From NCBI GenBank assembly GCA_951812955.1, contig OX638340.1:832001-896000 (forward strand): a DNA stretch of 64,000 bases, written 5' to 3'. The translations under genes and the position numbers were made by a program. Every line of letters starts with the position of its first letter. Positions within the stretch are counted from its first letter, which is position 1. The notes under the pieces are model-generated. The model saw nothing but the letters and a program-made list of their open reading frames with translations. It was not told the origin of the DNA and ran no database searches. The DNA is from an uncultured Gemmatimonadota bacterium (GTDB taxonomy: Bacteria; JAAXHH01). Shown here one piece after another: positions 1,508-64,000 of the stretch.

Positions 1508-1600
1508 TCAGGCGACGGCTCTTGTTTTTCGGAGGCGATCCGCGATGGCCGCGAAGAAGGCGTCCATGTCCGCGTGCAGGATCGTACGGGATTGATTCAC
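1508..1600 (-). pseudogene. Remnant of a dinB 5' end (30 codons) carried by an old segmental duplication
   Basis: The minus strand reads (M)NQSRTILHADMDAFFAA then diverges and stops. The DNA at 1541-1600 is about 85% identical to the 5' end of the intact dinB at 12620-12674. Confidence 0.5.
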
Positions 1601-1840
1601 GATGGGCTGGATTGGACTACATCACACAAAAACCGCGTTGCAGGATTGTTAGTCCTGATTATACTGTCTGGCGTGGATTCTTACAAGCGCATCGGGAAAG
1701 CGGATCAGCAAAAATCAGTCTATCGCGCGGGATGTGCGTTGGATGTGCGTTGGAAATTGCGTCGATCCATTTGCGGTGGGACGGTTGAATGTCGTGATAC
1801 CGCGCGGACCCGACTCAACCGCAGCATTGAGGGAGGTAAC

Positions 1841-10730: not shown

Positions 10731-10754
10731 ATTTCCTCCTGAATTAGATTGGGT

Positions 10755-18384: not shown

Positions 18385-20085
18385 GTGTCCCAAAAACACG
18401 CTTTGGAAATCTGTGGAAAATACCCTGAACGCGCAGAACGCATGGCCTTCCCAGGCAAGTTCCTTGGGCGGGTACATCTCGATGCGTGCCGGACCGGTTG
18501 CATGATTTGTCCGGGGCTGGGCCCGGAGCTCGGTCGCCCCTATTATGACGACCGCTGGGGCGACGATACCGACTGGATCGACGGCGAATCCGCCTGGACT
18601 CTGTTCAAAGCAAGCACGGCAGGTGACCTGGAAGTTATCGCAGCACTCCTCGACGAAGACCCGCGTCTCGTGAATGCGATGCACTGGTACACCCAGCCCG
18701 TACACCTGGCCGCCCGGCACGGGCACGCCGAAGCGACGGAGTTGCTTCTCGCTCGGAACGCCGACCCGGGGCTGGTTATTTTCGATTCGACCTGGTCAAG
18801 CCTGCTCGAGAACACACGATCCCGTGGGTTTGAGGACGTAGTGGAAGTGATTTCCGGTGCGATGCGAGATCGATTCGGCTACGATCCCGCGTTCATGGAG
18901 ATAGCCGGGCTGATTGAGAACAGCAACGTTGAAATGGTTAAAACGGCGCTGAATGACAATCCCGAACTCGTTGATCGATCCGACGCGGCAGGAAACAACG
19001 GTCTTCACCTCGGTGTGATAAATGGCCGTAAAAACCTGGTCGAACTGTTTCTCGAACGCGGTCTGCCCATAGATTCACGACGTGCTGACGGGAAAACACC
19101 GCTGACACTGTCTTTCGACACGGGTTTCGGACAACATCCACCGGACCCGAAACTGGGTATAACCGAGAATCTTTTGATGAATGGTGCGGATTACGCCATC
19201 ACGGCAGCCAGTTACCTGGGTGATCATGCCCGGGTTCGTTCGATCCTCGATGAGAATCCATCGGCTGCCGGCCGCGACGCGTCGATGAAGAGCCCCCTGG
19301 CGTACGCGGCTAGAGCGGGGCACGAAGATATTGCCCGGATGCTGCTTGACGCAGGAGTCGATGGCCATGTCGTGGACGAAGCGCTTTTTGAAGCTGTATG
19401 GTGTAAGCACGCGGGTGTTGCTGACCTGTTGCTGGAATACGGAGCCAACCCGAACGTGGAATTGGATTCTTGCGGATATGCCGCGGGTACCGATGAACAC
19501 GCGATACGGGATCTGCTCGTGCGTAATGGCGGGGTGACTCCACCATATTGGGAACTGGGTCAAAACGAACTCCGTCAGCTGGTGGATTGCAGAGCCGCAA
19601 GGGTCCGAGATCCCTACCTGATTGCGAATGTGCTCGAATCCGAGGACGAGAAACTGATCGACAGGTTACTGGATGGTGATCCACTTGCACTCGGCCGCCT
19701 GGAGGAACTTCAATACCTGCCGGGATGGGGTGACCATGCTGTGATTACGCGCAAACTGGTCGCGGCGGGGCTCGATCCGAACCGAAGGACATTCGAAGGC
19801 CAGACCTATCTTCACGTCTGTGCCAGGCAGGGCTGGGAGAAGACGGCTCAGGCATTAATCGAACAAGGTGCTGCGGTAAACGTACTGGATGAGAAGGAAG
19901 GCTGGACACCGCTGGCGATCGCGGTCAAAAACGGCCGGATCGGTATGGTTCGGCTGTTGTTGGAACGCGGCGCGGATCCCTACCTGGCCGATTGGCCATG
20001 GACTCGACCGCTAACGGTTGCAGAGGAGATTGATAACGAAGGAATTACAGAACTTTTACGTCTCTACAAAGGCAATACTGCATAA
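18385..20085 (+). CDS. Ankyrin-repeat protein (566 aa)
   Basis: At least 10 ANK repeats (QPVHLAARHGHAEATELLLARNADP, GWTPLAIAVKNGRIGMVRLLLERGADP). Confidence 0.85.
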   Translation: MSQKHALEICGKYPERAERMAFPGKFLGRVHLDACRTGCMICPGLGPELGRPYYDDRWGDDTDWIDGESAWTLFKASTAGDLEVIAALLDEDPRLVNAMHWYTQPVHLAARHGHAEATELLLARNADPGLVIFDSTWSSLLENTRSRGFEDVVEVISGAMRDRFGYDPAFMEIAGLIENSNVEMVKTALNDNPELVDRSDAAGNNGLHLGVINGRKNLVELFLERGLPIDSRRADGKTPLTLSFDTGFGQHPPDPKLGITENLLMNGADYAITAASYLGDHARVRSILDENPSAAGRDASMKSPLAYAARAGHEDIARMLLDAGVDGHVVDEALFEAVWCKHAGVADLLLEYGANPNVELDSCGYAAGTDEHAIRDLLVRNGGVTPPYWELGQNELRQLVDCRAARVRDPYLIANVLESEDEKLIDRLLDGDPLALGRLEELQYLPGWGDHAVITRKLVAAGLDPNRRTFEGQTYLHVCARQGWEKTAQALIEQGAAVNVLDEKEGWTPLAIAVKNGRIGMVRLLLERGADPYLADWPWTRPLTVAEEIDNEGITELLRLYKGNTA

Positions 20086-21145: not shown

Positions 21146-22372
21146 ATGATGAACGCCACCATCAGACAATTGCCCGATCAGCCGAATCTGCGACTACTCG
21201 AAAACGAGGCATCTGAACTGCTCGAGAATGGCTCCTGCACTACACAGGCCGAGGCACGTTTCAAACTAGCGCACCTGTACGGTTTTAAGAGTTGGCCGAA
21301 ACTGGAAGCCTACGTATCATCCATCGGATCCATGGGAGAACTCGAACAGGCAATCCAGGACGACGACGTCGATAGAGTGAAGCGGATATTGGACGAGGAC
21401 CCGGGGCTGATTCACCGTGAAGGGCACTGGGTCAAACGCCGCAGGCACAACGGCTACCTGCCGCTCGCATACGCTGCGTTTTTCGGTAAGGTAAACGTGC
21501 TGGCGGCACTGGTCGAGGCCGGTTCGAATGTACGCGCTGGGGAGGACAAGGCGTTACGAGCCGCGGCGTGTTTCGACAAAAACCTCCCCGCGGTCGAATT
21601 ACTGATCCGCCATGGAGCAGACCCAAACGCATCGACTACATCGCCTTCCGGTGTCCCGTACCGGGTGATCGATTATCCATGCATGACGTTGGCGCCCAAG
21701 ATGTTAGCCCACCTGGTTGAGAAGGGCGGTATTTTGAAGCCGGCCAATGCCGGGATGGTACTCGCGACGAATGAACGCAGACCCCGGGAGAAAGCCGCCT
21801 GCCTTCGCGTGATGGAACATGCGGGTATCCCGTTTCCGGATTCCCCTCCGATGGCCCTTCATCTCAGGGACTCGAACCGTCTGGAATCGCATCTGCTCAG
21901 GGATCCCGGATTGCTCTCGAGGTCGTTCAGCGAAGAAGACATCTTCCCAACGGGTTTCGAAATCAAGCGTCCTACGCCCTACGCTTACGCAACACCGCTG
22001 ACCGGTGGGGTCTCCCTGCTTCACATGGCTGTCGAGTTGTGTGACGTGGAACTGGCGCGGTGGCTCATCGAGCATGGCGCCGACGTTAATGCCGCCGCGG
22101 GGACAGACGACGAGGGATACGGCGGATGGACGCCCCTGTTCCACGCCATGGTCACGCTGCGCGTCCCACGTGGTTTTGCCGAAATCGTCGATCTGCTCCT
22201 GGATCATGGCGCCGACCCGGAAGTGCGAGCGTCCCTGCGTAAACCGACTCCAGAGGGTGGAGAAGCCACCTGGCGCGACGTTACGGCGGCCGATTACGCC
22301 CGAAGATTCATCTACACGGATTTAGTCAATCACGACGCGCTGCAGCGGGTCATGGTGGCCGGTGCGAAATAG
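21146..22372 (+). CDS. Ankyrin-repeat protein with a distinct N-terminal module
   Basis: ANK repeats (GVSLLHMAVELCDVELARWLIEHGADVNA). The N-terminus carries AHLYGFKSWPKLEAYV. Confidence 0.8.
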   Translation: MMNATIRQLPDQPNLRLLENEASELLENGSCTTQAEARFKLAHLYGFKSWPKLEAYVSSIGSMGELEQAIQDDDVDRVKRILDEDPGLIHREGHWVKRRRHNGYLPLAYAAFFGKVNVLAALVEAGSNVRAGEDKALRAAACFDKNLPAVELLIRHGADPNASTTSPSGVPYRVIDYPCMTLAPKMLAHLVEKGGILKPANAGMVLATNERRPREKAACLRVMEHAGIPFPDSPPMALHLRDSNRLESHLLRDPGLLSRSFSEEDIFPTGFEIKRPTPYAYATPLTGGVSLLHMAVELCDVELARWLIEHGADVNAAAGTDDEGYGGWTPLFHAMVTLRVPRGFAEIVDLLLDHGADPEVRASLRKPTPEGGEATWRDVTAADYARRFIYTDLVNHDALQRVMVAGAK

Positions 22373-22400: not shown

Positions 22401-24284
22401 ATGGACCCCGCCATGACTCCGAAAACGCCTTCTACCAGTCTACAGGTTGGTACCGTGTCCGATCACGATTATGCCCCCTCGAAGAACTGGCCCTACCCGG
22501 TCACAAAGTCACAAATCATGGACGAGGTCCGGAAACTGTCATTGGCCATCCAGGACGGTCGTGCCGAAGCCATGGCAGAAAAAAACAGGTATGGAAGTTC
22601 AGCTGATCCGTCATCGTTCTCCCCGGACGACGCACGGAACGTACTCGCCCTAAGTTACGGATTCCCGGGCTGGACACAGGTAGAACGGTACTTCGATACG
22701 GTAGACAGGTATTCGCGCGACCCTAACATGGAACCCACGCCAACCAATTCGGATGACGCGTCTTCGCTCGCCGATGTTTTCCTTCGTCTTGCCTGCCTGA
22801 CGCAGGGCGTCCAGGACCACCCGTCTCGGTGGGCAAGGGCCAGGGCCTTGCTCGATGACCATCCGAAACTATCCCGGTTGAATATCTACACCGCTTCGGT
22901 CGCCGGCGACGTTTCAGCCGTGGGCGAATACCTGGAAGCGGATTCTGAACTGGCTACGACGCCTGGCGGCCCCCATGACTGGGAGCCCCTGCTATACCTG
23001 GCGTATTCCCGTCTGGACCGCGAGACCTCGGGGCATTCCGCCGTCGAAATCACCCGGTTGCTCCTCTCCCATGGCGCCGACCCGAACGCGGGCTACCTCT
23101 GGGCGGGTTTCCCCTGCCCTTACACCGTACTGACCGGAGTCTTCGGCGAGGGTGAGAACGGTCCGGTCAGGTGTCCTCCACACCCTAACTGCTGCAAACT
23201 GGCGGAAATCCTGTTGGAGGCCGGGGCCGATCCCAACGACGCCCAGACACTATACAACAGGATGTTCAGCCGCGACGACGAACACCTTCGGTTCCTGTTC
23301 ACGCACGGCCTGGGGAAGGACCGGGACCGGCCCTGGCACCGGTTGTTGGGCGAACAATCCCGCGGCTGGGTGAGCAGTCCCGCGAGCATACTGGCCTACC
23401 AGCTTCAGTGGGCAGCCCGATGGAACTACCTGGATCGCGTCAAGTTACTGGTCGAAAACGGCGCCGACGTAAACAGGCCCTCCAACCGGCCCGATGCGCG
23501 ATCACCTTACCGCGAGGCCGTGTTCCACGGAAACGAGTCCATCGCCGAATACCTGGCAATCTGCGGCGCGGAGACGTTTGTGCTGGACGACCTGGACCGT
23601 TTCGCCGGCGCGTGCATCAGTGGAGACCTGGGTCGTGCCCGCGCGATGCTCGCACGCGATCCGTCACTCGTTGAAAAACTTGGAGAACGCGGGAACACGC
23701 TCATGGAGAACGCCGTTGGGTCGGACAACCGGGACGCGGTCCGGCTGATGTTCGAACTGGGCTTCGACTTGAAGAAATCCGGTATGCAAGAAGCGGCCCG
23801 TTATGGCCACCTGGACATGATCAAACTGCTGGTCGAGCTTGGGACTGATGTTTCCCAAACGGACGCGGGCCACGAGATCTGTGCCCTGGGCTATGCCAGC
23901 CATTACCAGCAAAATAACGTGATCGACTACCTGGCGCAGTTCGCCGGGATACACAGAGCAGTGCAGTCGGACTTGTTGGAACGGGTCGGGGAACTGCTTG
24001 ACGAAGATCCCGGTCTCGTACACGCTCGAGATACCAGCGGCAACTCGCCGCTGCACTGTCTCGACGTGGACAACAGGATGGAAGATACGGAGGAGATACT
24101 CCGTCTGCTCGTAACGCACGGAGCCGATGTCAATGCCAGAAACAAGGAAGGCCTGACACCGCTCGACAGGCTGGAGCTTCTTTCCGGTTTCAGTCGAAGA
24201 GACGGTTTGGCGGAACTGTTGCGCGGGTACGGGGCCGTGGAGTCAGACGCCGCCGACGGGTCAAAGAACCGTCCGGAGTCGTGA
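22401..24284 (+). CDS. Ankyrin-repeat protein (627 aa) with an N-terminal module
   Basis: Many ANK repeats. The N-terminus carries ALSYGFPGWTQVERYF. Confidence 0.8.
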   Translation: MDPAMTPKTPSTSLQVGTVSDHDYAPSKNWPYPVTKSQIMDEVRKLSLAIQDGRAEAMAEKNRYGSSADPSSFSPDDARNVLALSYGFPGWTQVERYFDTVDRYSRDPNMEPTPTNSDDASSLADVFLRLACLTQGVQDHPSRWARARALLDDHPKLSRLNIYTASVAGDVSAVGEYLEADSELATTPGGPHDWEPLLYLAYSRLDRETSGHSAVEITRLLLSHGADPNAGYLWAGFPCPYTVLTGVFGEGENGPVRCPPHPNCCKLAEILLEAGADPNDAQTLYNRMFSRDDEHLRFLFTHGLGKDRDRPWHRLLGEQSRGWVSSPASILAYQLQWAARWNYLDRVKLLVENGADVNRPSNRPDARSPYREAVFHGNESIAEYLAICGAETFVLDDLDRFAGACISGDLGRARAMLARDPSLVEKLGERGNTLMENAVGSDNRDAVRLMFELGFDLKKSGMQEAARYGHLDMIKLLVELGTDVSQTDAGHEICALGYASHYQQNNVIDYLAQFAGIHRAVQSDLLERVGELLDEDPGLVHARDTSGNSPLHCLDVDNRMEDTEEILRLLVTHGADVNARNKEGLTPLDRLELLSGFSRRDGLAELLRGYGAVESDAADGSKNRPES

Positions 24285-26353: not shown

Positions 26354-27874
26354 ATGCCGTCCCTGCCTTCACAACCCGATATACGCCATCTCAGTCTGCA
26401 GGCGAAAACGCTTCTGAAGTCCGCGCGCAGCGGCGAAGAGCATGCCGTAGACAGAATCCGCTCGGCCATCGGAGTGCGACGCGAACGCCTCGTGCTGTCG
26501 GACGCCTACCATGCCATCGCCAGGGAATACGGGTTCAGGTCCTGGCCCCATCTCAAGATACACATCGAAATCGTCGCTAGAAACCTGGACGAACAGCGCG
26601 AGATGTTTCTGTCATCGGCATGGCTGTGGGGCGATCGGCAGAGAGCCGAGGCCCTGCTCGCTACCGCTCCGGAACTCTCCAAGGGAAACATCCATGCCGC
26701 CTGCGCCGCCGGGGACGTGGATGCCGTCGCAGGTATCCTGGAGGCCGACCCCGCTTCGGCCACGACGAAGGGCGGTCCGAGAGACTGGCCCCCGATACTC
26801 TACGCGACGTGGTCCTGCTTTCTTTCCGAACGTGCCGACGCCATGGTCCGAGTCCTGGAATTGCTGCTGCGGCACGGCGCCGACCCGGACAGCTACTGGG
26901 TGAACGAGTCGGACTGGAAAGAGTCGGCCCTTTACGGATGCGTTGAAAACAACTGCGTACCGGCGGCCAGGGTGCTGGTGGACGCGGGCGCCAACCCAAA
27001 TGACAACGAATCCCTCTACCACGCCTGTGAGAAATTCAACCTGGAACTGCTCGACACGGTCGCGGCGAACGGACTGGACGCGGAAGGCGTCTCCTATTGC
27101 ATCAAGCATGCCATGGACATGACATGGACCGAGGCCGTCATGTGGTTTCTCGACCAGGGCGCCGATCCCAACGCCATCCATCCCGCCGACCGGGAGACCT
27201 CCCTTCACTGGGCGGTAAAGAGAAACTGCACAGCAGACGTGATCAGTGCGCTCCTGGACGCCGGAGCGGACCCCAACGCACGCACGTCGACCGGGAAGAG
27301 TACGGCCCTCGGGATCGTCGGCTGGACGCCCCTCGATTTCGCCTTCCGGCTCGGTCGCGGGGAGGTCGCCGCGCTCCTACAGCGGAATAGCGCCGAACCG
27401 TCCCCCATGTCCGAATACGACCGCTTCGTAGTCGCGTGCGCCAATACGGACCTCGATATCGTGGAGCAACTGAAAGACCGTCACCTGGCCAACTTGACTG
27501 ACGACGACCGGACCCTCATCAGCCACGCGGCCCAGATGGACAACTGGGCGGCGGTCCGTCTCATGGCGGACCTGGGCTGGCCGGTAGACGCCCGGGGCTG
27601 GATGGATGCCACGCCCCTCTACTGGGCCCTGTGCAAAGGCCATGCCGAAATGGTCGATTTCCTGCTTCGGCGGGGTGTCTCCATCGAACCCATCGGCGGA
27701 TACTTCCAGGATCCGGTCCATGCCGTGATTCATTGCCAGTGGAATGGGGACAAAAGCGGGTACCCGGTCGCGCTCGGTCGACTGCTCGACCATGGCCTCG
27801 GCGTTCCGGAAGGACGCTATCCATGCGGCAATGTCGCGATGGACGAGGTGCTGTCGCGCTACGTCGAAAACTGA
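26354..27874 (+). CDS. Ankyrin-repeat protein (506 aa) with an N-terminal module
   Basis: ANK repeats (ETSLHWAVKRNCTADVISALLDAGADPNA). The N-terminus carries AIAREYGFRSWPHLKIHIE. Confidence 0.8.
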   Translation: MPSLPSQPDIRHLSLQAKTLLKSARSGEEHAVDRIRSAIGVRRERLVLSDAYHAIAREYGFRSWPHLKIHIEIVARNLDEQREMFLSSAWLWGDRQRAEALLATAPELSKGNIHAACAAGDVDAVAGILEADPASATTKGGPRDWPPILYATWSCFLSERADAMVRVLELLLRHGADPDSYWVNESDWKESALYGCVENNCVPAARVLVDAGANPNDNESLYHACEKFNLELLDTVAANGLDAEGVSYCIKHAMDMTWTEAVMWFLDQGADPNAIHPADRETSLHWAVKRNCTADVISALLDAGADPNARTSTGKSTALGIVGWTPLDFAFRLGRGEVAALLQRNSAEPSPMSEYDRFVVACANTDLDIVEQLKDRHLANLTDDDRTLISHAAQMDNWAAVRLMADLGWPVDARGWMDATPLYWALCKGHAEMVDFLLRRGVSIEPIGGYFQDPVHAVIHCQWNGDKSGYPVALGRLLDHGLGVPEGRYPCGNVAMDEVLSRYVEN

Positions 27875-33973: not shown

Positions 33974-35338
33974 TTAAACGTCGAGCAACAGTTCGGCGGG
34001 TACCTCGATCAGGGATTTGATCCTGCCCAGGAACTGCACGGCTTCCCTTCCGTCAATGATCCGGTGGTCGTAGGTCAGTGCCGCGTACATCATGGGCCGG
34101 ATCACGATCTCGCCGTCGACGGCAATGGGCCGGTCGTCGATTCGGTGCAGACCCAGAATCCCCACCTGGGGCGGGTTCAGGATAGGCGTGCTCAGCATGG
34201 ATCCGAAAACCCCGCCGTTCGTGATCGTAAAGGTCCCTCCCCTCAGGTCCTCCAAAGAAAGCTTGCCGTCCCCGGCCCTGGCCGCGTATTCGCGTATACC
34301 GCCTTCGATCTCGGCAAAAGTCATCCGATCCGCGTCCCGGAGGACGGGTACCACGAGCCCGTCTTCGGCACCGACCGCGATGCCGATGTCATAATAATGC
34401 TTCCTGACAATCGTATCCTCACGGATCTCGGCATTCAACTCTGGAAATTCCCTTAGCGCGCCGATCACGGCTTTTACGAAGAAGGACATGAATCCCAGCC
34501 GGACGCCGTGCCGCTTCTCGAAGGACTCCCGGTTTTTGCGTCGGATCGTCATCACCGCGCTCATGTCGATCTCGTTGAAGGTCGTCAGCATCGCGGCGGT
34601 CTGCTGCGCTTCCACGAGCCGACTGGCGATGGTGCGCCGCCGCCGGGACATGGGTATAACCTCCTCACGATGGTCACGGGATGCTTCGGAAGTATCGGCG
34701 GAAACGGCCGCGGCCGCCGCCTGCGCGGGAGCATCGGTCGCTGCGGAGTCACGGGATCGACTGGCTTGCCGCTCCGTCCTGCCAGAACCTCGTTCATCGG
34801 GCTCCCGCCCTGTTTCATCCGAAACGGCTTTCTCCTTCCTCGCTGCCACGGCCCGCTCTACGTCCTCCCTGCAGATCCGTCCTCCCATCCCGGTCCCTTC
34901 CAACCCGGCCAGGGAGATGCCCGCTTCGTCCGCCATACGGCGCGCCACGGGCGTTGCGCGATCGTCCGCAACCTCGTCTGCCTGGTTCGCCGCAGCCTGC
35001 TCGCCCGCAGCCGCAGCCTGCTCGCCCGCAGCCACAGCCTGCTCGCCCGCAGCCACAGCCTGCTCGCCCGCCGCCGCAGCCTGCTCGCCCGCCTTGACAC
35101 CGCCGTCTTCCAGCACACCGAGCAGATCGCCAATTTTTACATCCTCTCCCGCCGTGCGTTCGATGCGGGCCAGGACGCCGCTGTCGTTGGCGTTCACTTC
35201 GAGGGTAACTTTTTCGGTCTCCAACTCCAGCAGGGCCTCACCGGTCGTGACCGTATCGCCTTCCACTTTGAACCACTGGACGACCGTTGCTTCGACAATG
35301 GATTCACCGAGTTGCGGTACGGTGATGTCGATTGCCAT
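33974..35338 (-). CDS. sucB: 2-oxoglutarate dehydrogenase E2 (dihydrolipoyllysine-residue succinyltransferase)
   Basis: Lipoyl domain (ETEKVTLEV), an Ala/Glu/Gln repeat linker, an E3-binding domain and a catalytic DHRIIDG motif. Directly downstream of sucA. Confidence 0.85.
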
Positions 35339-35468
35339 ATAGCGCTCCCTGGTTAAACTGTAGTAGCCACGGTTCCCGTCAAGTGTCGGGACTCCGTCTA
35401 ATCCACGAACTGGAATTCCTGAACACGCGTACTCGAATCGAACAAAATGCGCAGGACGGCGCGATCTG

Positions 35469-38327
35469 TCAATTCATCTCGATGTTTCCCGATGCGCCCA
35501 TTGCAAAGGCCATCTTCACCAGGTTATGCTGATTTCGATTGTGAATGGCGGTCGAACCCTCGGAAGGACTCGCACTCGGCGGCCGGGAAACCAGAAATAA
35601 CGGGCAGCGTCCGTCGAGCGCACTTTCCAGCACCTTGCGCACGTAGTCCCAGGCGCCCATGTTTTCCGGCTCTTCCTGAAGCCAGGCGACTTCCTTCAGG
35701 TTGGGATACCTGTCGGTGATCTGTCTTACCTGGTCCAACGCGATAGGATAAAGCTGCTCTATACGGACAATCGCGGCGTGTGTCGCGTTCTCCCGGGCTT
35801 CATCGTTCATCAGATCGACGAATACCTTGCCGCTGCAGAATACCAGTCTACGGATTTTATCGGGATCTTCGAACGATCGCTCATCTTCAATGATCGGCTG
35901 CCATTTGCCTTCCGCGAGCTCACGGGCCGAGGATGCCACATCCGGATGGCGGAGCAGGCTCTTCGGCGTCATAACGATCAGGGGCAGCGGGTCGGATTCA
36001 AGCAACCTTGACTGCCTCCGCAACAAATGGAAATACTGGGCCGCCGTGGTGCAGTTGGCGATGCGGATGTTGAAATCGGCGCCGAAGGACAGGAATCGTT
36101 CCATCAGGCCGCTGGAGTGATCCGGTCCCTGCCCCTCGAATCCGTGAGGCAGCAGGATGGTCAGCGACGAGGTCTGCCCCCACTTGGCGCGGCCGGAAAC
36201 GAGGAACTCGTCGATGATGATCTGGGCTCCGTCAACGAAATCGCCGTACTGGGCCTCCCAGAGCACGAAACGTTCGGGCGCCTGTATGCTGTACCCGTAC
36301 TCGAATCCCAGGGCGGCGTATTCCGTGAGCGGCGTGTTCCGCGTTTCGAAGGACGCGTTCGCCTGGGGCAGGCGGCGAAGCGGATTCCATGCCAGGTCGG
36401 TCTCGAAGTCATGCAACACGTTGTGCCGCTGGCTGAAGGTCCCTCTTTCCACGTCCTGACCCGTCAGTCTGACTGGAACGCCGTCCTCGATGATCGTTGC
36501 GAATGCGAGGATCTCCGCCTGGGCCCAGTCGATTTTCCGTGCGTCCACATCGTCCAGCGCCCGCCGCCTGCGTTCGATAACTCTTCTGAGCCTGGGATGA
36601 AGGGTGAAGTCATCCGGGAATGTCCAGAGCGACTTGTTGAGATGCTTGAGCCGTCTCATGGAAACGGAAGAACGCACGCGTTTCGCAGTACCGGATCTCG
36701 GTGGACTGGCATAGGGCTCCACAAGTACTTCCTCGGGTTTCAGTTCATCAAGCATCTTCTGCATACCGTTCATGCGTTCGTCGACCATTTCCTCCGGTTT
36801 TCCTGTTTCGATCCTACCCTCCGACACGAGACGGTCCGCCCACAGCTTCCTCACCGTCGGATGGGATCCGATCCGCCGATAGAGACTGGGTTGGGTCAGC
36901 GACGGATCATCCCCCTCGTTGTGGCCGTGACGGCGGTACCCTATCAGATCGATCAGGAAATCCTTGCGGAATTTGACTCGGTAGCCGTAGGCGATCCGCG
37001 CGGCTTCCAGACAGGCCACCGGGTCATCGGCGTTGACGTGAATGATGGGTATTTCGAATCCCCGCGCTATATCGCTGGCATAGAGGGTGCTCCGGGATTG
37101 TTCCGAAGGCGTGGTGTATCCGAGCTGGTTGTTGGTGATCAGGTGGATGGTCCCGCCTGTTCGAAATCCGGGGACACGATAGAGCGTCAGGGTTTCCGCC
37201 ACGACGCCCTGGCCGGCGAAAGCGGCGTCGCCGTGGATCAGGATGGGCAGGTTGCGTTCCGGCAGCGGACGAACGTCGCCCGGCAGATTGGCGACCGTCC
37301 CCGCGGCGCGGGCCATGCCTTCCAGCACGGGATTGACCGCTTCCAGGTGACTGGGGTTCGGCGCCAGGTGGATATGCAGGTCCACTTCCTTGCCCTCCTG
37401 GTCCAGGTATCTTCGCTTGGCGCCGCTGTGGTACTTCACGTCACCGGTCCATCCCGAATCGTTGCCCGTCTTGTTTACCCGCTGGACCGGATCCCTGAAT
37501 TCAGCCAGTATATGCTCGTATGGCTTGTTCAGAATGTGTGCGAGGACGTTCAGCCTTCCCCGGTGAGCCATACCGATCAGGATGTTGCAGGTATTCTTCT
37601 CCGCGGCTTCGCCGATCACCCCGTCCAGGATGAGGATCATGGCGTCCAGGCCTTCGATGGAAAACCGGGTCTTGCCCGGGAAGGTCCGGTGCAGAAATTG
37701 CTCGAAGACCTCCACCTGCGTGAGCCGGTCCAGTATGTCCACGGCGCTGTATTCCTCCTCCGAGGGCCTGAACCGCCCCGTTTCCGCCGCTTCCTGCAAC
37801 CATTCCCGCTCTCCCGGCACCTCGATGTGCATGTAGTCGTAACCGGTGGTCGAGGAATATACCCGCTTGAGTTTCTTGAGCGCTTCGGAGGCGTTGCCGC
37901 ACTGCTTGCCCACCGGACCGCCGATCAGCGAGGAAGGCAGATGGCGCATCGCGTCTTCCGTCACGCCTTGCGCCGCCAGTTCCAGTTCCGTCAGCGGGTC
38001 GCCCAGTGCGGCGTCGTCGTCGGTCGCGAAGACGGAATAGGGAAAGTACCTTGGATCGGCCAGGGGATCCAGGTGCGCCCCGAGATGACCGTATTCCCGG
38101 ACATTCTGGGCGAGATTGGCAATGAAGACGATCTGGTCGATATCAGCGGGACAAGCGGGGAAAACTGCCGGTGATTCCCCGGCGGATTCACCATCGAGAG
38201 AAGGGGTGAACCGGGTAAACAATTCACGGGTCGCCGCGTCGACGGAATCGGGGTCCTGAAGGTATTGTTCGTACAACGCGATCACGTAACCGGCGTTCGG
38301 ACCATGAAACTCGCGCAAGAGATCCAA
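35469..38327 (-). CDS. sucA: 2-oxoglutarate dehydrogenase E1 component
   Basis: A 952-aa protein with typical SucA N-terminus and TPP-binding regions. TTG start preceded by GGAGGA. Confidence 0.9.
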
Positions 38328-43886: not shown

Positions 43887-44543
43887 TTGCCTGCCATGAC
43901 CGCAGCGGTTTCAAATTTCGCCGTGGATGTCGTTGACCGGTATGCGAAGGATCCCGGCAGGGTCGCCCTGCAATGGCAAAAAGCCGGCGCCGTGGCGACG
44001 GACGTCACCTTCCTGGATCTGAAAATACGTTCCGAAAAGGTCGCCCACGTGCTTCACCGTCACGGTGTGCGCCCGGGCCATCGGGTATTCATCCTGCTTC
44101 CTCCCTGCATGGCCTGGTGGGAGTCGATAGTTGGATGCATGCGGGCCGGCGCCGTGGCCGCGCTGGGGCAGGACGCATCCGATGCGCGGTTACTAAAGGA
44201 TCAGATCATTCAGTCCCGATCGACGCTCGTAATCGCGTCGGCCTCGCTTGCTGACCAGGTCGGCCGCATCATGGATGGCTGTACCGGGATCGCCCACTGG
44301 TTCTCCGTCGGCTGGGAGCGCGAGGGCTGGGTGGACTACGACCGCCGCGTCTCCCTCGCTCCGGCCGGGTTCAAGGCGGTTGAGACCCGGGAAACCGACC
44401 CCTGTATCGTCGTGTACGACCGGGGAACATCAGCCAGCGGAACAACACACCGGCACGGCGATGAAGGCTACGATCTGGAGCAGCTCGACGCGTGGCGCGA
44501 CGGGCTGGCCATCGCGGTGCACGACGCCTCCGAGCATCCATGA
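43887..44543 (+). pseudogene. Truncated acyl-CoA synthetase (AMP-binding) N-terminal fragment
   Basis: The N-terminal half of an acyl-CoA synthetase pattern is present (VTFLDLKIRSEKVAHVL...GHRVFILLPPCMAWWESIVGCMRAGAVAA). The P-loop is degenerate (GTSASGTTHRHG). The entire C-terminal half is missing, and the stop overlaps the caiB-like start. Confidence 0.4.
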
Positions 44544-45700
44544 TACCCGCGCTGACCGACCACCTCGTCCTGGAGCTGACCACGCAGTTGCCGGGTCCCT
44601 ACTGCGCCATGCTGCTCGCAGATCTCGGCGCCAGTGTGATCAAGGTGGAGCCGCCCGGCGGAGATCCCCTGCGCCGTTTTCCCCCGGCTTTCGCCAGTGT
44701 CAACCGCGGCAAGCGGAATATCGTGATCGATTTAAAAAAGGAAGCGGGCGGGGAGGTCATGCGCCGCCTGGTCAGACGGGCGGACGTCGTGCTGGAGGGA
44801 TTCCGGCCTGGCGTGGCCGGACGGCTCGGCGTGGACTACCCCTCGGTAAAACACCTCAATCCCGCCATCGTGTATTGCTCCATTTCGGGGTTTGGCCAAG
44901 AAGGCCCCTACCGGAACCGCGCCGGTCATGACATCAACTATCTCGCGATCGGTGGTCTGCTGGGACGCGGCGATCCGCCCGCGGTCCCTCCCGTTCTGAT
45001 TTCGGACCTGTCCTCTGGCCTGTACGCCGCGCTGGCCGTTTCCGCCGCGCTGATGCACCGGACGGCCACGGGAGAGGGTCGCTTTATCGATCTGTCCATG
45101 ACCGACTGCATCCTGTCCTGGATGGCCCTGGATATCGCCACTGCCGCGCAGGAACCTAACGCGGCGCGACAGCAGTTTCTCGGAGATATCCCGCACTATG
45201 GTGTATTCGAGACTTCGGACGGCCGGCACATCAGCCTCGGGATCGTCCACGAGGATCATTTCTGGACCCGCCTCTGCGATGTCCTGGGACTGGAAGACTG
45301 GCGGGACTGGTCCTCGGGAAAACGGTTGAACAGGGCGGCCGCGATACAGGGAAAACTCCAGGCCGTTTTCGCCACGGATTCCTGCCACGAATGGGACCGA
45401 AGGCTGCGGGAAGCCGATGTGCCCTGTGCCCCCATTTACAACCTTGACGAGCTGACGGACGATCCTTATATACAGTACCGGAATCCGTTTTACAGTCTCG
45501 AAGCTTCCGATCAGTCGGCGAGCCGTCAGGTCAAAGCGCCATACCGAACAGATGCGCCGGAGGCCGAAGCACCGCTCCCGCCTCCTGTCCTGGGCGAAAA
45601 TACACGGCAGGTACTCTCGCAGTCCGGGTACGACGACGGTGAAATCGACCGCTTGATACAACAGGGTGCAGTACACGAATCCCATAACGGGGAGAAGTAA
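44540..45700 (+). CDS. CaiB/BaiF-family CoA-transferase (family III)
   Basis: LELTTQLPGPYCAMLLADLGASVIKVE... typical of family III CoA-transferases. Confidence 0.85.
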   Translation: MIPALTDHLVLELTTQLPGPYCAMLLADLGASVIKVEPPGGDPLRRFPPAFASVNRGKRNIVIDLKKEAGGEVMRRLVRRADVVLEGFRPGVAGRLGVDYPSVKHLNPAIVYCSISGFGQEGPYRNRAGHDINYLAIGGLLGRGDPPAVPPVLISDLSSGLYAALAVSAALMHRTATGEGRFIDLSMTDCILSWMALDIATAAQEPNAARQQFLGDIPHYGVFETSDGRHISLGIVHEDHFWTRLCDVLGLEDWRDWSSGKRLNRAAAIQGKLQAVFATDSCHEWDRRLREADVPCAPIYNLDELTDDPYIQYRNPFYSLEASDQSASRQVKAPYRTDAPEAEAPLPPPVLGENTRQVLSQSGYDDGEIDRLIQQGAVHESHNGEK

Positions 45701-45721
45701 CCGAATCCTAAAGGAGATATC

Positions 45722-47455
45722 ATGAGCATCCGCGTGAGAAACTGGCGCGACCAGGCACCTTACGTCGGGCATATCAGCGCGTTGGTCTGGACGCTGTACC
45801 AGTCCCATGACAAAGACGAAACGTCTCCGCCGGACGTAAACCGGCTGCATGGGATCAACAGCTTCGTCAAGCACGGGCTGCAAGGCCACCAGCATTCGGA
45901 CCACCACAGTCACGACAGTATCGAGCAGTTGTACTTCATACTACGGGGGCGCGGCCAGCTCACCATCGGCGACGACAAGGTGGATGTCCGGGACGGTACG
46001 GCCGTCTACATGCCCGTAAACGTGCCTCACCAGGCCTTCAACGACGGAGATGGCTGGATGGAGCATCTTATCGTCAGTTGCCCGCTGGACGAAATCCGGG
46101 AGGGCACGTCCGCGGTCCGGGACTGGCGCGACGTCCATCCGGTGGTGCTGGGAGACGGGACCGTATCCTGGCCCCTGTTGCTGCGCGAAGAGGAGGCCCC
46201 GGCCGGCGAAGGCGGCGTTCTCCAACGCGTCCATAGCGTGACCCGCTACGCCGTCCAAGGACGCCGGGAGACCGACTGGCAAGAGCTGGACGGGATTGAG
46301 CTGGTCCACTACGTGATCAGCGGATATGGGACCATCGAAGAGCTGGACGATAACCAGCAGTTGGTCACGGAAGGCTCCGCGGTCCACGTACTTCCAGGCG
46401 AAGCACACAGATTCATAAACCAGGGCGAAGGATGGTTCGAATACGTCACGTTCGCGGTCGAAGTAGGAGAAATCGAGGTGCCGGATGAATCCGACCAGGA
46501 CGAGGACTCCGATGAAACGGCCGTGCAAGCCGGCGAGGCGGAAGCCGCCGCCGCTACGGTATTGACGGATGTCGATTGGGATGAAGCCGACGCTGTGGAA
46601 ACCGAAGAAGAAATCGAGGAATCGGTGACTTCCGACGCGACCGAAGAGGATGTGGACGAGGCCGAGGCTGCAGTCGAATTGGAAGATGACGACTCCGGCG
46701 AAATCGAAGCTGCAGCCGATGAAACTGACGAGGATGCGGGGGACGAGGATGCGGGGGACGAGGATGCAGGAGACGCGGAGGAAGATGACGACTCCGGCGA
46801 AATCGAAGCTGCAGCCGATGAAGCAGACGAGGATGCGGGGGACGAGGATGCAGGAGACGCGGAGGAAGATGACGCGGAGGAAGATGACGACTCCGGCGAA
46901 ATCGAAGCTGCAGCCGATGAAGCTGACTCGGTAGAAGATGATGATGCCGAAGAAGATTCTGACGCGGTAGATGACGATGACGCGGAAGTCCAGGATCTGA
47001 CCGATATCGGCGAGGATCAGGAAGAAGACGGTGACGTCGACGACGCTGGAGTCGCCGAAATAGACGATGACGCCGAAGTAGACGATGACGCGGAAGTCGA
47101 GGATCTGACCGATACCGGCGAGGATCAGGAAGACGCGGAAGACTACGATGACGCCGAAATAGGCGATGACGCGGTAGAAGACGATAACCTGGAAGAAGAT
47201 ACTGACCCGGACGACGATGACGCGGAAGTAAACGACCTGGCAGATACTGGCGAGGATCAGGAAGACGCGGAGAACGCCTCGATCGAAGCAGAGGAAGAAG
47301 ACGGGACAGACGATTCATCAGGGGACGAGGAAGAGGAAGATTTCGACCTGGAAGACGATGACGCGGAGTTCGATGTCGAAGCCGAAGATGAAACCGCCGT
47401 GGAGGACGAAGCGGGGGATGAGGACGAGGATTCCCCTGATGCGGACAGACGGTAA
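45722..47455 (+). CDS. Bicupin protein with a C-terminal polyacidic repetitive tail of about 330 aa
   Basis: Two cupin_2 modules (HSHDSIEQLYFILRGRG...HQAFNDGDGW and ...VISGYGTIEEL...AHRFINQGEGW). These are followed by D/E/A-rich tandem repeats (DDSGEIEAAADE.DEDAGDEDAGD...). Confidence 0.7.
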   Translation: MSIRVRNWRDQAPYVGHISALVWTLYQSHDKDETSPPDVNRLHGINSFVKHGLQGHQHSDHHSHDSIEQLYFILRGRGQLTIGDDKVDVRDGTAVYMPVNVPHQAFNDGDGWMEHLIVSCPLDEIREGTSAVRDWRDVHPVVLGDGTVSWPLLLREEEAPAGEGGVLQRVHSVTRYAVQGRRETDWQELDGIELVHYVISGYGTIEELDDNQQLVTEGSAVHVLPGEAHRFINQGEGWFEYVTFAVEVGEIEVPDESDQDEDSDETAVQAGEAEAAAATVLTDVDWDEADAVETEEEIEESVTSDATEEDVDEAEAAVELEDDDSGEIEAAADETDEDAGDEDAGDEDAGDAEEDDDSGEIEAAADEADEDAGDEDAGDAEEDDAEEDDDSGEIEAAADEADSVEDDDAEEDSDAVDDDDAEVQDLTDIGEDQEEDGDVDDAGVAEIDDDAEVDDDAEVEDLTDTGEDQEDAEDYDDAEIGDDAVEDDNLEEDTDPDDDDAEVNDLADTGEDQEDAENASIEAEEEDGTDDSSGDEEEEDFDLEDDDAEFDVEAEDETAVEDEAGDEDEDSPDADRR

Positions 47456-47467
47456 ACGAAAGCGTAC

Positions 47468-48370
47468 GTGAACAACCTACCCGCCCGATCGTTCGGGCGA
47501 ACCGGCATGCGTCCGGCGGCATTGGCCATGGGAGCCGCCTTTCTGCACGAGAGCCCCGAGGCAGTCGAAGCCATCCAGACCGCCCTGTCGCTGGGCATCA
47601 ACTATTTCGATACCTATCCGGGCCACCACGAGGAAAAGTGGGGAGAGGCGCTCTCCGGCGTACCCCGTTCCTCCTACTACCTCCAGGCCAAGATCGGCAC
47701 CCATCCCGATCGAAAAAAGGATTTCTCGGGGGACGGCGCCAGGTGGAGCCTGGACCGCAGCCTGCGGGACCTTAAGACAGACTATCTCGACTCCGTTCTC
47801 GTACACGATCCGACCGATGTGGATGAATTGCTGCACGAAGGTGCGGTATTCGACGTGCTGCGCCAATTGAAAGCGCAGGGCGTGGTGAGGAACATCGGGC
47901 TCGGCGCCCGGTCCCATGACTGGCACGTCCGGCTGATCGACGAAGGCATTTGCGACGTCTCCCTGACCTTCCTGGACTACACCCTGGTCAACCAGTCTGC
48001 CGCCGCAACCATCTTTCCATCGGCCAGAAAGCACGAAACCGGAGTAATCCTGGCCAGTGTGCAGGGCATGGGACTGCTGACCGGATCGGAACCCGATCCC
48101 GAGCGGGAGCGGGGCATGCATCCCGGATCCGAGCCGAGGGCGCACGGGATCTGGACCTGGTGCCGTGAGCACGGCGTCAACATTCGTCACCTGGCCATCC
48201 AATTCTGTCTGGCTGCGCCGGTGGACAGCGTGGTCATGTTCGGCCCGGCTTCTATCCGGCACGTGTACGATGCTTACGAGGCCGCCACGGAAACCATTCC
48301 ACCCGATATGTGGGAGAAACTCGAGCACGACTTCGGCATCCGGCTCGGGATGAGTGACGGGCCGTCGTAA
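47468..48370 (+). CDS. Aldo/keto reductase
   Basis: AKR pattern (FGRTGMRP...GINYFDT...DYLDSVLVHDP). GTG start. Confidence 0.8.
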   Translation: MNNLPARSFGRTGMRPAALAMGAAFLHESPEAVEAIQTALSLGINYFDTYPGHHEEKWGEALSGVPRSSYYLQAKIGTHPDRKKDFSGDGARWSLDRSLRDLKTDYLDSVLVHDPTDVDELLHEGAVFDVLRQLKAQGVVRNIGLGARSHDWHVRLIDEGICDVSLTFLDYTLVNQSAAATIFPSARKHETGVILASVQGMGLLTGSEPDPERERGMHPGSEPRAHGIWTWCREHGVNIRHLAIQFCLAAPVDSVVMFGPASIRHVYDAYEAATETIPPDMWEKLEHDFGIRLGMSDGPS

Positions 48371-51127: not shown

Positions 51128-52159
51128 ATGGAAACCATCCGGGTAGGCGTGGTCGGCGCAGGCACCAATACCGTGGCCATGCATATACCGAAACTCCAGG
51201 CGATCGAAGGGGTGGAGATCGTCAGCGTCTGCAACCGCAGTCGCGCATCCTCGGAACGCGTGGCCGCGCAGTTCGGCATACCGACCGTCTACGAGACGTG
51301 GACCGAACTGATCGAGGCCGACGATACCGATGCCATTGTCGTCGGCACCTGGCCCTACCTCCACTGCGCCACCACCTTGGCGGCCCTGGCAAACGGCAAG
51401 CACATCCTGACCGAGGCGCGCATGGCCATGAATCTCGAAGAGGCCCAGCTCATGCACGACGCCGCGCAGAGCAACCCGGATCTCGTCGCCCAGATCGTGC
51501 CTTCCCCCATGACGCTCTGGGCCGACAAGACCATCCAGCGCCTGATCGCGGAAGGCTACGTGGGCGACATACTCAGCGTGGAACTCCGCTCCTCCGGCAG
51601 CGACTTCATCGACCGCGACGGCCCCATGCACTGGCGGCAGAACGTCGATTTCAGCGGAATGAACATCATGACCATGGGCATCTGGTACGAGGCCATGCGA
51701 CGCTGGGTAGGGGATCCGCTGTCGGTGTATGCCCAGGGCAAGACCTTCACGAAAATGCGCCGTGATGCCGAAACGGGCGTAATGCGCGCCGTTAAGGTGC
51801 CGGAGCATATAGACATCGTGATGGACTTGATTTGCGGCGCGTCGGCCTATGTCAAGATTTCAACGGTCCAGGGACTCGCCGACGAAAGCGACGCCACGAT
51901 CTATGGCAGCGAAGGAACGATCCGCATGGGCGACGGGAAAATCTACGGGGCGCAACGTGGAGACGACGCCCTGGCCGAGATTGAAATACGTCCCGAAGAC
52001 CACGCGGAATGGCGTGTGGAAGAGGAATTCGTCAATGCCATCCGCGGCCTCGAAAAGGTTTCCCACACGCCTTTCGACGTAGGCGTCAAGTACATGGAAT
52101 TCACCGAGGCAGTGACCCGCAGCATGGCGGAAGGCAAGGCCATAGCCCTGCCGCTCTAG
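51128..52159 (+). CDS. Gfo/Idh/MocA-family oxidoreductase
   Basis: IRVGVVGAGTNTVAMHIPKL... Rossmann N-terminus. Confidence 0.85.
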   Translation: METIRVGVVGAGTNTVAMHIPKLQAIEGVEIVSVCNRSRASSERVAAQFGIPTVYETWTELIEADDTDAIVVGTWPYLHCATTLAALANGKHILTEARMAMNLEEAQLMHDAAQSNPDLVAQIVPSPMTLWADKTIQRLIAEGYVGDILSVELRSSGSDFIDRDGPMHWRQNVDFSGMNIMTMGIWYEAMRRWVGDPLSVYAQGKTFTKMRRDAETGVMRAVKVPEHIDIVMDLICGASAYVKISTVQGLADESDATIYGSEGTIRMGDGKIYGAQRGDDALAEIEIRPEDHAEWRVEEEFVNAIRGLEKVSHTPFDVGVKYMEFTEAVTRSMAEGKAIALPL

Positions 52160-62751: not shown

Positions 62752-64000
62752 TCAGACTCCGACCCGGTCAGTGTCGAAAGTCTCCAGGTTGCGCGTGATG
62801 TCCCGGATGAACCGGGCGGCGTTGAGACCGTCGATGAAGCGGTGGTCGAAGGACAGGCTCAGAAACATCATGGAACGGATGGCCAGGGAGTCATCCGCCT
62901 GCACGACAACCTGCTTCTTGACGCTCCCCGTGGCGAGGATGCCCGCCTCGGGCTGGTTGATGATCGGCGTGCCAAAAAGGGTGTCCCACATGCCCGGGTT
63001 CGTCAGAGTGAACGTACTGCCCTTCAGGTCGTCAGGAGACAACTTGCGGTCATGGGCACGCTTGGCCAGGTCGTGAGCCGCCTGGGCAATCTCCGAGAAA
63101 TCCATCTCGTCCGCGTGGCGGATTACCGGCACCACGACCCCCTTTTCCAGGCCCACCGCCAGCCCCAGGTTTACGTGCTTCCACTGGAGGACCCGGTCGT
63201 CGTCCATGGTGGCGTTCAGCATGGGGTTGGCGCGTAACGCGTCGACGATGGCGGTGATGAAGAAGGGGGTCAGCGTCAGCTTGATGCCGGTTTTCTGTTG
63301 GAACCGTTCCCTGGCCTCTTCGCGGTACCGGACGACGTGCGTCATGTCGACTTCCGAGACGGAGGTCACGTGGGGGGACACCTGCTTGCTGAGGACCATG
63401 TGCTTTGCGATGGTCTTGCGCAGGGTGTCCATATTCACGACGCGGGCTTCTTCGGTGCCTGCCGGCCGGGATACAGAAACGAACTCGGAATCCTCGTCCT
63501 GCTCCGCCGCCGGTTCAGGAATCCGGGACGCGCGCCGTTCCAGGTAGGTAAGCAGATCGTCCCGGGTTACCCGGCCACCCTTGCCGGTTCCTTCCAGGGA
63601 TTCCAGCATAGCCATGTCGATGCGTTCTTCCCGGGCGATGCGCAATACGAGGGGAGAGTAGAACCGTTCGGCCCGCCTTCGCCTCAGCGGCCCCCCGTCA
63701 ACGGCCTCCGCGGCCGGCGTCAATTCATCCGCATCGATCGTCTCCGGCGCTTCCCCGGCACCGTCCGGCTGCTCCTCCGAATCGGCCGCGCTGGAATCGA
63801 CGTCTTCTTCGTCCCCCGTGTCGATGACGCCGATGATTTCTCCAATGGCCACCGTCGTCCCTTCGTCCACGCGAATCTCGCTCAACACGCCGCCCGCGAT
63901 GGCGGGTATGTCCGTGTCGATCTTGTCGGTGGTGATCTCAACCACGGACTCGTCGCGCTCGATCGGATCGCCCACCTTCTTCAACCAGCGGATGACCGTT
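62752..64000 (-). CDS. 2-oxo-acid dehydrogenase E2 (dihydrolipoamide acyltransferase), 5'-partial (runs off the window end)
   Basis: Lipoyl domain (EITTDKIDTDIPA), a peripheral-subunit-binding domain and a catalytic DHRFIDG motif. The open frame continues past 64000. Confidence 0.8.
   Translation of the reverse strand, partial: TVIRWLKKVGDPIERDESVVEITTDKIDTDIPAIAGGVLSEIRVDEGTTVAIGEIIGVIDTGDEEDVDSSAADSEEQPDGAGEAPETIDADELTPAAEAVDGGPLRRRRAERFYSPLVLRIAREERIDMAMLESLEGTGKGGRVTRDDLLTYLERRASRIPEPAAEQDEDSEFVSVSRPAGTEEARVVNMDTLRKTIAKHMVLSKQVSPHVTSVSEVDMTHVVRYREEARERFQQKTGIKLTLTPFFITAIVDALRANPMLNATMDDDRVLQWKHVNLGLAVGLEKGVVVPVIRHADEMDFSEIAQAAHDLAKRAHDRKLSPDDLKGSTFTLTNPGMWDTLFGTPIINQPEAGILATGSVKKQVVVQADDSLAIRSMMFLSLSFDHRFIDGLNAARFIRDITRNLETFDTDRVGV

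Follow-up and report, generated by a model that had tools for sequence, protein, structure and literature searches.

A bicupin gene with a polyacidic tail

The DNA analysed here, referred to as the window, is a stretch of 64,000 nucleotides (64 kb) from an uncultured Gemmatimonadota bacterium (GenBank assembly GCA_951812955.1, contig OX638340.1, positions 832,001 to 896,000 of the forward strand). It contains a gene for a bicupin, a protein with two cupin barrels in tandem, that continues beyond its second barrel into a long tail dominated by aspartate and glutamate. A first-pass annotation, made by a model from the sequence, had described this gene as a bicupin with a polyacidic tail of about 330 amino acids (aa). 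The analysis bears this out, with a bicupin core of 246 aa followed by a tail of 331 aa (aa 247-577). The gene and its parts, in window coordinates, are as follows; open reading frames are abbreviated ORFs, and TRF is Tandem Repeats Finder.

45722..47455, + strand: entire gene, bicupin with polyacidic tail, 577 aa and stop codon (ORF list)
45711..45716, + strand: Shine-Dalgarno sequence AAGGAG, 5 nt ahead of the ATG (read from the sequence)
45722..46459, + strand: bicupin core, aa 1-246, with a metal site in the N-terminal barrel and none in the C-terminal barrel
46460..46621, + strand: conserved proximal tail segment, aa 247-300 (54 aa), with GEAEAAAATVLTDVDWDEADAVETEEEIEE; aligns across 17 species
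46622..47329, + strand: hypervariable polyacidic repeat region, aa 301-536 (repeat searches; insertions and deletions relative to relatives)
46634..46930, + strand: three tandem 99-bp (33-aa) units with EDDDSGEIEAAADE and a nested 15-bp DEDAG sub-repeat (repeat search; TRF)
46916..47263, + strand: second repeat block, 108-bp units with an 18-bp (DDDAEV-type) periodicity (repeat search; TRF period 18)
47330..47452, + strand: conserved C-terminal acidic-aromatic motif, the last 41 aa, EEEDFDLEDDDAEFDVEAEDETAVEDEAGDEDEDSPDADRR (alignment, 81% mean column identity)
46554..47522, - strand: antisense Arg/Pro/Leu/His-rich ORF of 322 aa (ORF list), a compositional by-product and not a gene

The Pfam domain Cupin_2 (PF07883) matches residues 1-246 twice (E 2.3e-19), and AlphaFold2 (AF2), run on a 33-sequence alignment, models the core as two tandem beta-barrels with a predicted local distance difference test score (pLDDT) of about 90. 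The protein carries two double-stranded beta-helix barrels in a single chain, which places it in the cupin superfamily as a bicupin. The N-terminal barrel contains both cupin motif 1 (G..HxH..E..G) and motif 2 (G..P..H..N), and with them a canonical 3-His/1-Glu metal site formed by H62, H64, E68 and H103. The two motifs, H62-x-H64-x3-E68 and G92-x5-P98-x4-H103-x3-N107, are at least 90% conserved or invariant in alignments of 18 and 33 sequences, and a His-rich stretch, HQHSDHHSHD, adjoins the site. The C-terminal barrel has no HxH pair (most relatives have Tyr in place of H196), and the protein is thus expected to hold a single metal site. The N-terminus, MSIRVRNWRDQ, is kept across all bicupin orthologues.

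No curated family claims the bicupin, which belongs to none of the characterised bicupin enzyme families that could be tested. (S)-ureidoglycine aminohydrolase was rejected as a candidate, since the match to its model (NCBIfam TIGR03214) reached 21 bits against a curated equivalog cut-off of 200; the likeness to YlbA / ureidoglycine aminohydrolase is structural only, at 10-13% identity. An exact-sequence look-up of the 577-aa protein returned no record. The best explanation of the core is a cytoplasmic metal-dependent enzyme of a catabolic operon.

Composition and repeats of the tail

The tail contains 99 Asp, 80 Glu, 52 Ala, 20 Val and 19 Gly residues. It has no Lys, His or Cys, and the terminal RR are its sole basic residues. 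Asp and Glu together account for 54% and Ala for 16%. The wording "almost pure Asp/Glu/Ala", used in the first-pass annotation, was thus right about the acidic character and slightly overstated the purity, the three residues making up 70%. The net charge per residue (NCPR) is -0.535, corresponding to a charge of about -175 at pH 7 and about 179 carboxylates. No other protein of the window comes close: the maximum count of Asp plus Glu in any 40-aa span is 26 in the tail protein and at most 16 in the approximately 57 other ORFs. The whole tail is predicted to be disordered, with pLDDT below 50 throughout and without docking on the core in the AF2 model; the sole helix in the proximal segment is a helical turn of 3 residues, likewise below 50. 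Charge and predicted disorder both agree with the earlier description of an extreme polyanionic disordered tail.

The repeats of the tail are in frame, with periods of 99, 108, 18 and 15 bp, every one a multiple of 3. For the unit containing EDDDSGEIEAAADE, TRF reported a period of 99, 2.5 copies and 93% matches, and the longest exact repeats are 53 bp (two copies) and 43 bp (three copies, at a spacing of 99 bp). Tandem repeats had been noted earlier from about position 46680 with a unit of about 63 bp; the repeats are real, whereas the true period is 99 bp over 46634-46930. The further acidic repeats reported beyond about 46930 correspond to the 108-bp and 18-bp repeats of the second block.

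The long antisense ORF had been dismissed as spurious in the first-pass annotation, and rightly so. It is unavoidable, because the reverse complement of GAN codons forms no stop codon in any frame, and an ORF in the +2 frame (46650-46934) is likewise a compositional by-product. Furthermore, the sense frame of the tail is under purifying selection and its insertions and deletions (indels) are strictly in frame, which supports the view that the antisense ORF is not a gene. A strong purine strand asymmetry was also seen across positions 46001-48000 of the window, with an AT skew of +0.27 and a GC skew of +0.14 against about 0 elsewhere, because nearly all codons of the tail are GAN or GCN. The tail mRNA would hold a purine-rich tract of about 1 kb.

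Distribution of the tail and quality of the assemblies

A search with the bicupin domain yielded 33 protein clusters and 47 genomic loci. The first-pass annotation had pointed to relatives as the place to look for a cupin plus acidic-tail architecture, and 21 complete orthologues were found to carry it: the window, 17 species-representative genomes and three metagenome contigs (L052, L056 and L058). All 21 keep the open acidic frame, with tails of 162-413 aa that consist of 50-59% Asp plus Glu and contain 2-4 Lys plus Arg. Every member with about 75% core identity or more bears the tail, and no species of the clade has lost it. The tail-bearing orthologues form one Latescibacterota clade, whose named members are metagenome-assembled genomes (MAGs), some of them labelled Gemmatimonadetes, with sponge- or coral-style isolate names. 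One of the metagenome contigs (L056) originates from the Aplysina aerophoba metagenome MKWU (Slaby et al. 2017, PMC5649159).

More distant relatives, with 48-60% core identity and from lake, groundwater and marine water-column MAGs, end after the second barrel at 242-254 aa and have no tail. In intermediate marine relatives (56-68% identity) the acidic tail is shorter, at 45-147 aa, and ends differently. Homologues from Dehalococcoidia (29-33% identity), which were checked for convergence in other sponge symbionts, have no tail. The operon upstream of the bicupin is common to tail-bearing and tail-less relatives, and the tail is therefore an in-situ elaboration of an old enzyme rather than a domain fusion.

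The tail is present in independent assemblies, including single-contig chromosomes of 3.5-4 Mb (L002, L007, L010, L013, L015 and L016 are megabase-scale single contigs), and both of its ends are colinear with those of relatives in the alignment. Its length is highly variable among strains with 94-96% identical flanking DNA, being 331 aa in the window, 244 aa in L002 and 396 aa in L056. Compared with L002 and L003, whose flanks are 94-96% identical to those of the window, the repeat region differs by whole-repeat indels. Because strains that are about 95% identical differ by more than 150 aa of tail, reads would be needed to certify the precise repeat copy number of the window.

Short-read assemblies often fail at the tail: the contig of L003 ends within it, L020 has an N-gap and L052 has ambiguous bases. 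Two sequences, P0001 and L020 (at about 10740-11233), enter an alternative frame of the GA-rich repeats and acquire Lys/Arg-rich polybasic tails (KKRSRKRR…), a single frameshift being enough to turn the polyacidic tail polybasic. These polybasic tails are probably assembly errors. In L006 (10001-12080 of OZ245326.1) the tail contains an out-of-frame stretch of 14 codons with a stop, …GDE*PMRTGKKPKTATY…, after which the original acidic frame and the conserved C-terminal motif resume, giving a read-through tail of about 447 aa. The stretch may be a consensus error within the repeats, or else the allele was disrupted recently. Breakpoints and frameshifts recur in the tail in short-read MAGs, and long spurious ORFs arise in the antisense and +2 frames, which calls for caution in annotation.

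Conserved ends and a hypervariable middle

The ratio of nonsynonymous to synonymous divergence (dN/dS) was calculated from a codon-threaded MAFFT alignment. It is 0.094 in the bicupin core, 0.26 in the proximal tail segment (aa 247-300, …AAAAVVAEVDWDDADAVETEEEIEE; 17 species) and 0.40 in the C-terminal 41 aa, at proportions of synonymous differences (pS) of 0.47 in the proximal segment and 0.33 in the C-terminal one; across the core and both tail ends pS ranges from 0.33 to 0.47. Since synonymous divergence is similar in the core and in the tail ends, the conservation of the ends acts at the protein level and reflects neither recency nor a DNA element. The conserved ends, a proximal segment with a VDW motif and a C-terminal FD..FD motif, flank a hypervariable middle, a point missed by the first-pass annotation.

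The consensus of the C-terminal segment is DDDDFDLEDDDADFDIEDEDETxVEDETGExDDDSPDADRR. Its second Phe, its Gly and the final Arg are invariant, and the non-acidic positions F, G, T, V, P and RR are conserved. L016 is the one tail-bearing orthologue in which the VDW motif was not found. By contrast, the middle ranges from 63 to 314 aa across species and cannot be aligned between them. Its repeat units are specific to the species, exemplified by EDDDSGEIEAAADE in the window, DVDDVDD in L005, EAEDGDDEDGE in L007 and L010, VAAVEEE in L013 and DDDAEVNDLTDTGEDQEE in L056, and despite this the middle stays at 48-63% Asp plus Glu. The protein thus combines a conserved globular core, a variable disordered linker and a conserved terminal peptide, a linker-plus-tip arrangement that is an architectural class and not a homologous family. 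In L015 the conserved proximal VDWDDAAAVETEEEIA segment is duplicated (at 10850 and 10955), and repeat turnover can therefore copy conserved motifs too.

The C-terminal motif was seen only on bicupin orthologues in the local data and in a metagenome scan. A degenerate DNA pattern for the two-Phe motif gave 7 matches in metagenome contigs, of which three were bicupin orthologues (L052, L056 and L058) and four were chance matches in unrelated acidic stretches, and it gave no evidence for a modular tail. A profile of the 41-aa motif searched against 5.8 billion proteins returned 3567 word-sharing candidates, none at E<=10, and phmmer with the 331-aa tail returned zero matches among 1.84 billion representatives; both searches were composition-filtered, missed the known orthologues too and are uninformative. 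The tail is assigned to no described family.

Operon and genomic context

The genes next to the bicupin and the ankyrin-repeat genes of the window are listed below.

43887..44543, + strand: AMP-binding N-terminal fragment, stand-alone, 218 aa (Pfam AMP-binding, profile positions 6-169 of 384)
44540..45700, + strand: family III (CaiB/Frc-type) CoA-transferase, 386 aa from ATG 44540 (Pfam CoA_transf_3, E 1.7e-98)
47507..48370, + strand: aldo/keto reductase (AKR), 287 aa from the likely ATG 47507 (Pfam Aldo_ket_red, E 3.8e-33)
310-1470 (-), 1574-2452 (+), 3844-5577 (-), 6313-7119 (+) and 12808-13419 (+): ankyrin-repeat genes
17453-18343 (+), 18385-20085 (+), 21146-22372 (+), 22401-24284 (+) and 26354-27874 (+): further ankyrin-repeat genes

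As first described, the bicupin gene directly follows a CaiB-like CoA-transferase in a long co-directional cluster. Tail-bearing and tail-less relatives have the same upstream gene order, namely ArgG, glyoxalase, M14 peptidase, nucleoside hydrolase, SDR (short-chain dehydrogenase/reductase), an AMP-binding fragment of about 215 aa, the family III CoA-transferase, an optional GFO-type oxidoreductase and the bicupin. In tail-less relatives a GFO/IDH/MocA oxidoreductase lies between the CoA-transferase and the bicupin (L049 8981-9982; L050 9000-10001), and the operon ends with the bicupin. Members of the tail-bearing clade have nothing in this slot; there the bicupin is followed by the AKR, two Amidohydro_2 genes, a GDSL hydrolase and a GFO-type oxidoreductase (51128-52159 in the window). 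No terminator-like site was found on the + strand within 40-53 kb of the window.

The NCBIfam best matches of the CoA-transferase all fall far under their cut-offs, and its orthologue in L001 has 385 aa. For the AKR, ATG 47507 is the likely start, as called in L001, the first possible one being GTG 47468. The AMP-binding fragment is found as a gene of 209-223 aa in the same place in tail-bearing and tail-less relatives (L001 8175-8822; L049 7045-7674; L050 7037-7708). As it is constant in size and in position before the CoA-transferase, it looks like a real short gene and not a pseudogene fragment. Its charge is -3 to -11 in the tail-bearing clade against -14 to -21 in three tail-less relatives; a fourth tail-less relative, L022 (-4), breaks this pattern, and the samples are not phylogenetically independent. 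The charge co-variation is a weak lead towards the AMP-binding fragment as a partner of the tail.

The ankyrin-repeat genes form a cluster of at least 10 genes at 310-27874 of the window. Abundance of ankyrin repeats is a hallmark of sponge symbionts (PMC12993501), which fits the sponge and coral MAG names of the closest loci. The window further contains two genes for the E2 component of 2-oxoacid dehydrogenases (33974-38327, -; 62752-63984, -), one of which adjoins a 2-oxoglutarate dehydrogenase E1 gene. The moderately acidic stretch of the E2 at 62752-63984 is an ordinary inter-domain linker, unrelated to the tail.

Calcium binding, secretion and other classes

A Ca2+- or metal-sequestering or mineral-binding role had been suggested in the first-pass annotation. 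The protein does not support this reading. The tail contains neither EF-hand-like DxDxDG nor RTX GGxGxD motifs (0 observed, with 0.5 DxDxDG expected in shuffled sequences), and 0-1 were counted in the tails of the orthologues. A signal-peptide-like segment is absent from the first 40 residues, which are hydrophilic (maximum Kyte-Doolittle mean over 12 aa of 0.8), and the N-terminus belongs to the first barrel, with AF2 strands at residues 3-7 and 20-28. By these measures an export signal, as expected of a secreted polyanionic mineral-binding or Ca-storage protein, is lacking, and no genes for mineralisation, secretion or microcompartments were found in the 64 kb.

Other classes were considered and rejected. 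A type I secretion substrate is not indicated, there being no RTX repeats in the protein and no ABC/MFP/OMP export genes in the window. Nor is a bacterial microcompartment cargo, as no PF00936 or PF03319 shell domains occur among the ORFs of the window and AF2 predicts no more helix than the 3-residue turn of the proximal segment. Clamp-binding and SSB-tip (IPF-type) patterns are absent from the protein.

Possible role of the tail

Our tentative reading, which may well be right, is that selection has kept the tail as a polyanionic disordered tether or bristle, with a conserved motif displayed at its end. Four features argue for a maintained tether carrying a short linear motif: the convergent composition of the middle, the strict reading frame, the retention of the tail throughout the clade, and the conserved aromatic and small residues at both ends. 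The middle changes by in-frame expansion and contraction, through replication slippage or unequal recombination between units of 15-108 bp, and selection on it concerns composition and length only, that is, about 50-60% Asp plus Glu and no basic residues. The two flanks, the proximal Ala/Val-VDW-acidic segment and the 41-aa C-terminal acidic-aromatic segment, are under sequence-specific purifying selection. A highly expanded, self-repelling polyelectrolyte of this kind could keep the enzyme soluble and unassociated, and might offer its terminal motif to a putative partner, presumably one with a basic and hydrophobic groove. The tail itself, its pattern of conservation, the repeat mechanism, the predicted disorder and the lack of Ca motifs are shown; the role and the partner are what we infer. 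The core itself is acidic, with a net charge of -11 to -19 in tail-bearing clades against -3 to -13 outside them, which suggests that the tail is repelled from the core and not folded back on it. An autoinhibitory intramolecular fold-back of the type known from Hfq is therefore unlikely, and the AF2 model shows no docking.

Several points weigh against this interpretation. No partner of the motif was found; the motif was not seen on other families, but those searches were blinded by composition filters. In AF2 neither conserved segment shows a sign of folding or binding, about 15 residues of the C-terminal motif are missing from L013, and the VDW motif is missing from L016. Even if they had no specific function, the two ends of a repeat array should appear better conserved than the middle, where slippage is frequent, and that the tail is expressed and translated is deduced from the sequence. 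A more specific form of the tether reading, which we consider rather unlikely, is that the tail is a clade-specific module gained with a sponge or coral lifestyle, in which a tether of more than 300 residues, through its C-terminal peptide and/or the VDW segment, docks the enzyme on a specific basic partner or surface. If so, it would be a linker-plus-tip system of regulation or localisation, so far known from SSB, FtsZ and Hfq, on an ordinary catabolic enzyme, its tail length tuned by rapid repeat turnover.

The tail may instead act by length and bulk negative charge only, as a solubility or entropic bristle that would, for instance, keep the enzyme from aggregating or associating non-specifically, in which case the conserved ends would be slippage-free remnants of an ancestral short acidic extension without a specific partner. 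This is an unlikely but serious alternative. It would account for the convergence of different repeat units on one composition, for the greater acidity of the core in tail-bearing lineages, for the absence of structure or docking in AF2, and for the partial loss of one conserved segment each that L013 and L016 tolerate; moreover, a natural disordered extension conferring solubility has been documented in a marine bacterial enzyme. However, selection on composition alone would not need to keep the two Phe, the TG, SP and RR of the C-terminal motif and the Trp of VDW across species at pS 0.33-0.47, and the protein is the one of about 58 in the window with such a tail, so that no general adaptation of the proteome is involved. 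A function as a cation sink, in which low-affinity, high-capacity binding would buffer Mg2+, Ca2+, transition metals or polyamines, or would raise the local level of metal and so load the N-terminal cupin site, seems improbable to us. With its carboxylates the tail would condense counter-ions as any polyanion does, and the enzyme has its canonical metal site next to HQHSDHHSHD. But the tail has no DxDxDG (0 against 0.5 expected by shuffling), RTX motif, His or Cys, and the protein lacks a signal peptide and belongs to a cytoplasmic metabolic operon, and neither mineralisation nor metal-homeostasis genes adjoin it in the window. Free cytoplasmic Ca2+ is far below the millimolar Kd typical of such polyanions, and the conserved aromatic motif is left unaccounted for by bulk ion binding. 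Disordered D/E-rich proteins are nevertheless known as Ca2+ binders (reviews PMC8391695, PMC6022996).

It is more doubtful still that the tail is a tolerated, functionless runaway expansion, a selfish or neutral microsatellite-like growth in frame at a permissive C-terminus. The extreme variation of the middle in length and sequence, even between strains of about 95% average nucleotide identity, and the occasional frame breaks (the internal blip of L006, the basic frameshifted tail of P0001) are what such growth would produce. Against this, the frame is kept through 160-410 codons to the same conserved end in 21 of 24 complete orthologues, loss of the tail is seen in no species of the clade, both ends have a dN/dS below 1, and Asp plus Glu remain at 48-63% despite the differing units. 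That the tail, or its length in the window, is an assembly artefact is very improbable. The first-pass annotation had itself named an expansion during assembly as the outcome that would undo it, and the failures of short-read assemblies at the locus (L003, L020, L052, P0001), together with exact repeats of 43-53 bp, make the suspicion understandable. The same architecture with an in-frame acidic tail is nevertheless present in 21 independent orthologues, among them megabase-scale single-contig chromosomes, and its ends are colinear with those of relatives. For the existence of the tail, though not for its exact copy number, an artefact is refuted in kind.

Few cytoplasmic enzymes of bacteria have long disordered regions that are almost purely polyanionic. 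Across about 20 species, the tail is a clean natural case in which selection has acted on composition and length and not on sequence, and its conserved ends resemble short linear motifs. Should the partner suggested by the tether reading exist, the principle of a disordered linker plus a conserved tip in bacteria would reach metabolic enzymes, and the tail would provide a handle on an uncharacterised operon conserved across Latescibacterota and relatives. If the tail is a solubility bristle only, it is a curiosity that might serve as a solubility tag of natural origin. The tail bears on no long-standing question.

Comparison with known systems

Literature searches found no report of a bicupin that ends in an acidic tail, and none of such tails in sponge-associated Latescibacterota. 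Among the closest known systems are compact bicupins, namely DR1152 (1sfn), YlbA / (S)-ureidoglycine aminohydrolase (1rc6, 4e2q), EF2996 (1sef) and pirin-like proteins. They are 10-16% identical to the window protein, have a different operon context, and none has a long acidic tail. The seed-storage bicupins (vicilins / 7S and 11S globulins) share the bicupin fold, and structural matches included the beta-conglycinin alpha-prime subunit (1uik) and several vicilins. These proteins carry variable, highly acidic disordered insertions or extensions. They differ in being eukaryotic storage proteins with 9-15% identity and a relation by fold only, and their acidic regions are shorter and placed differently.

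Calsequestrin-type and Starmaker-like Ca2+-binding disordered proteins resemble the tail in extreme D/E-richness, disorder and charge density (reviews PMC8391695, PMC6022996). They act at secretory, luminal or extracellular sites at millimolar Ca2+, whereas the bicupin has neither a signal peptide nor a Ca motif. The carbonic anhydrase of Hydrogenovibrio marinus has a disordered extension (the NEXT tag) that is needed for solubility and has been read as an entropic bristle (bioRxiv 10.1101/2021.08.05.455358). Like the bicupin tail, it lengthens an enzyme by a disordered stretch without catalytic function, here in a marine bacterium. In contrast to the bicupin tail, it is N-terminal and has 53 aa, it is not described as repetitive or polyacidic, and neither a conserved terminal motif nor hypervariability in length has been reported for it.

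SSB and FtsZ consist of a conserved globular domain, a variable low-complexity disordered linker and a conserved terminal peptide. In Hfq, an acidic disordered C-terminal tip has a regulatory function (PMC5606850). The bicupin is not homologous to any of the three, and its core is an acidic metabolic enzyme instead of a nucleic-acid-binding or cytoskeletal protein. Furthermore, its linker is polyanionic and up to about 10 times longer than theirs, and its chain ends in RR, not in hydrophobic residues. What the bicupin shares with SSB, FtsZ and Hfq, by analogy, is the arrangement of a core, a variable linker and a short conserved acidic/aromatic end.

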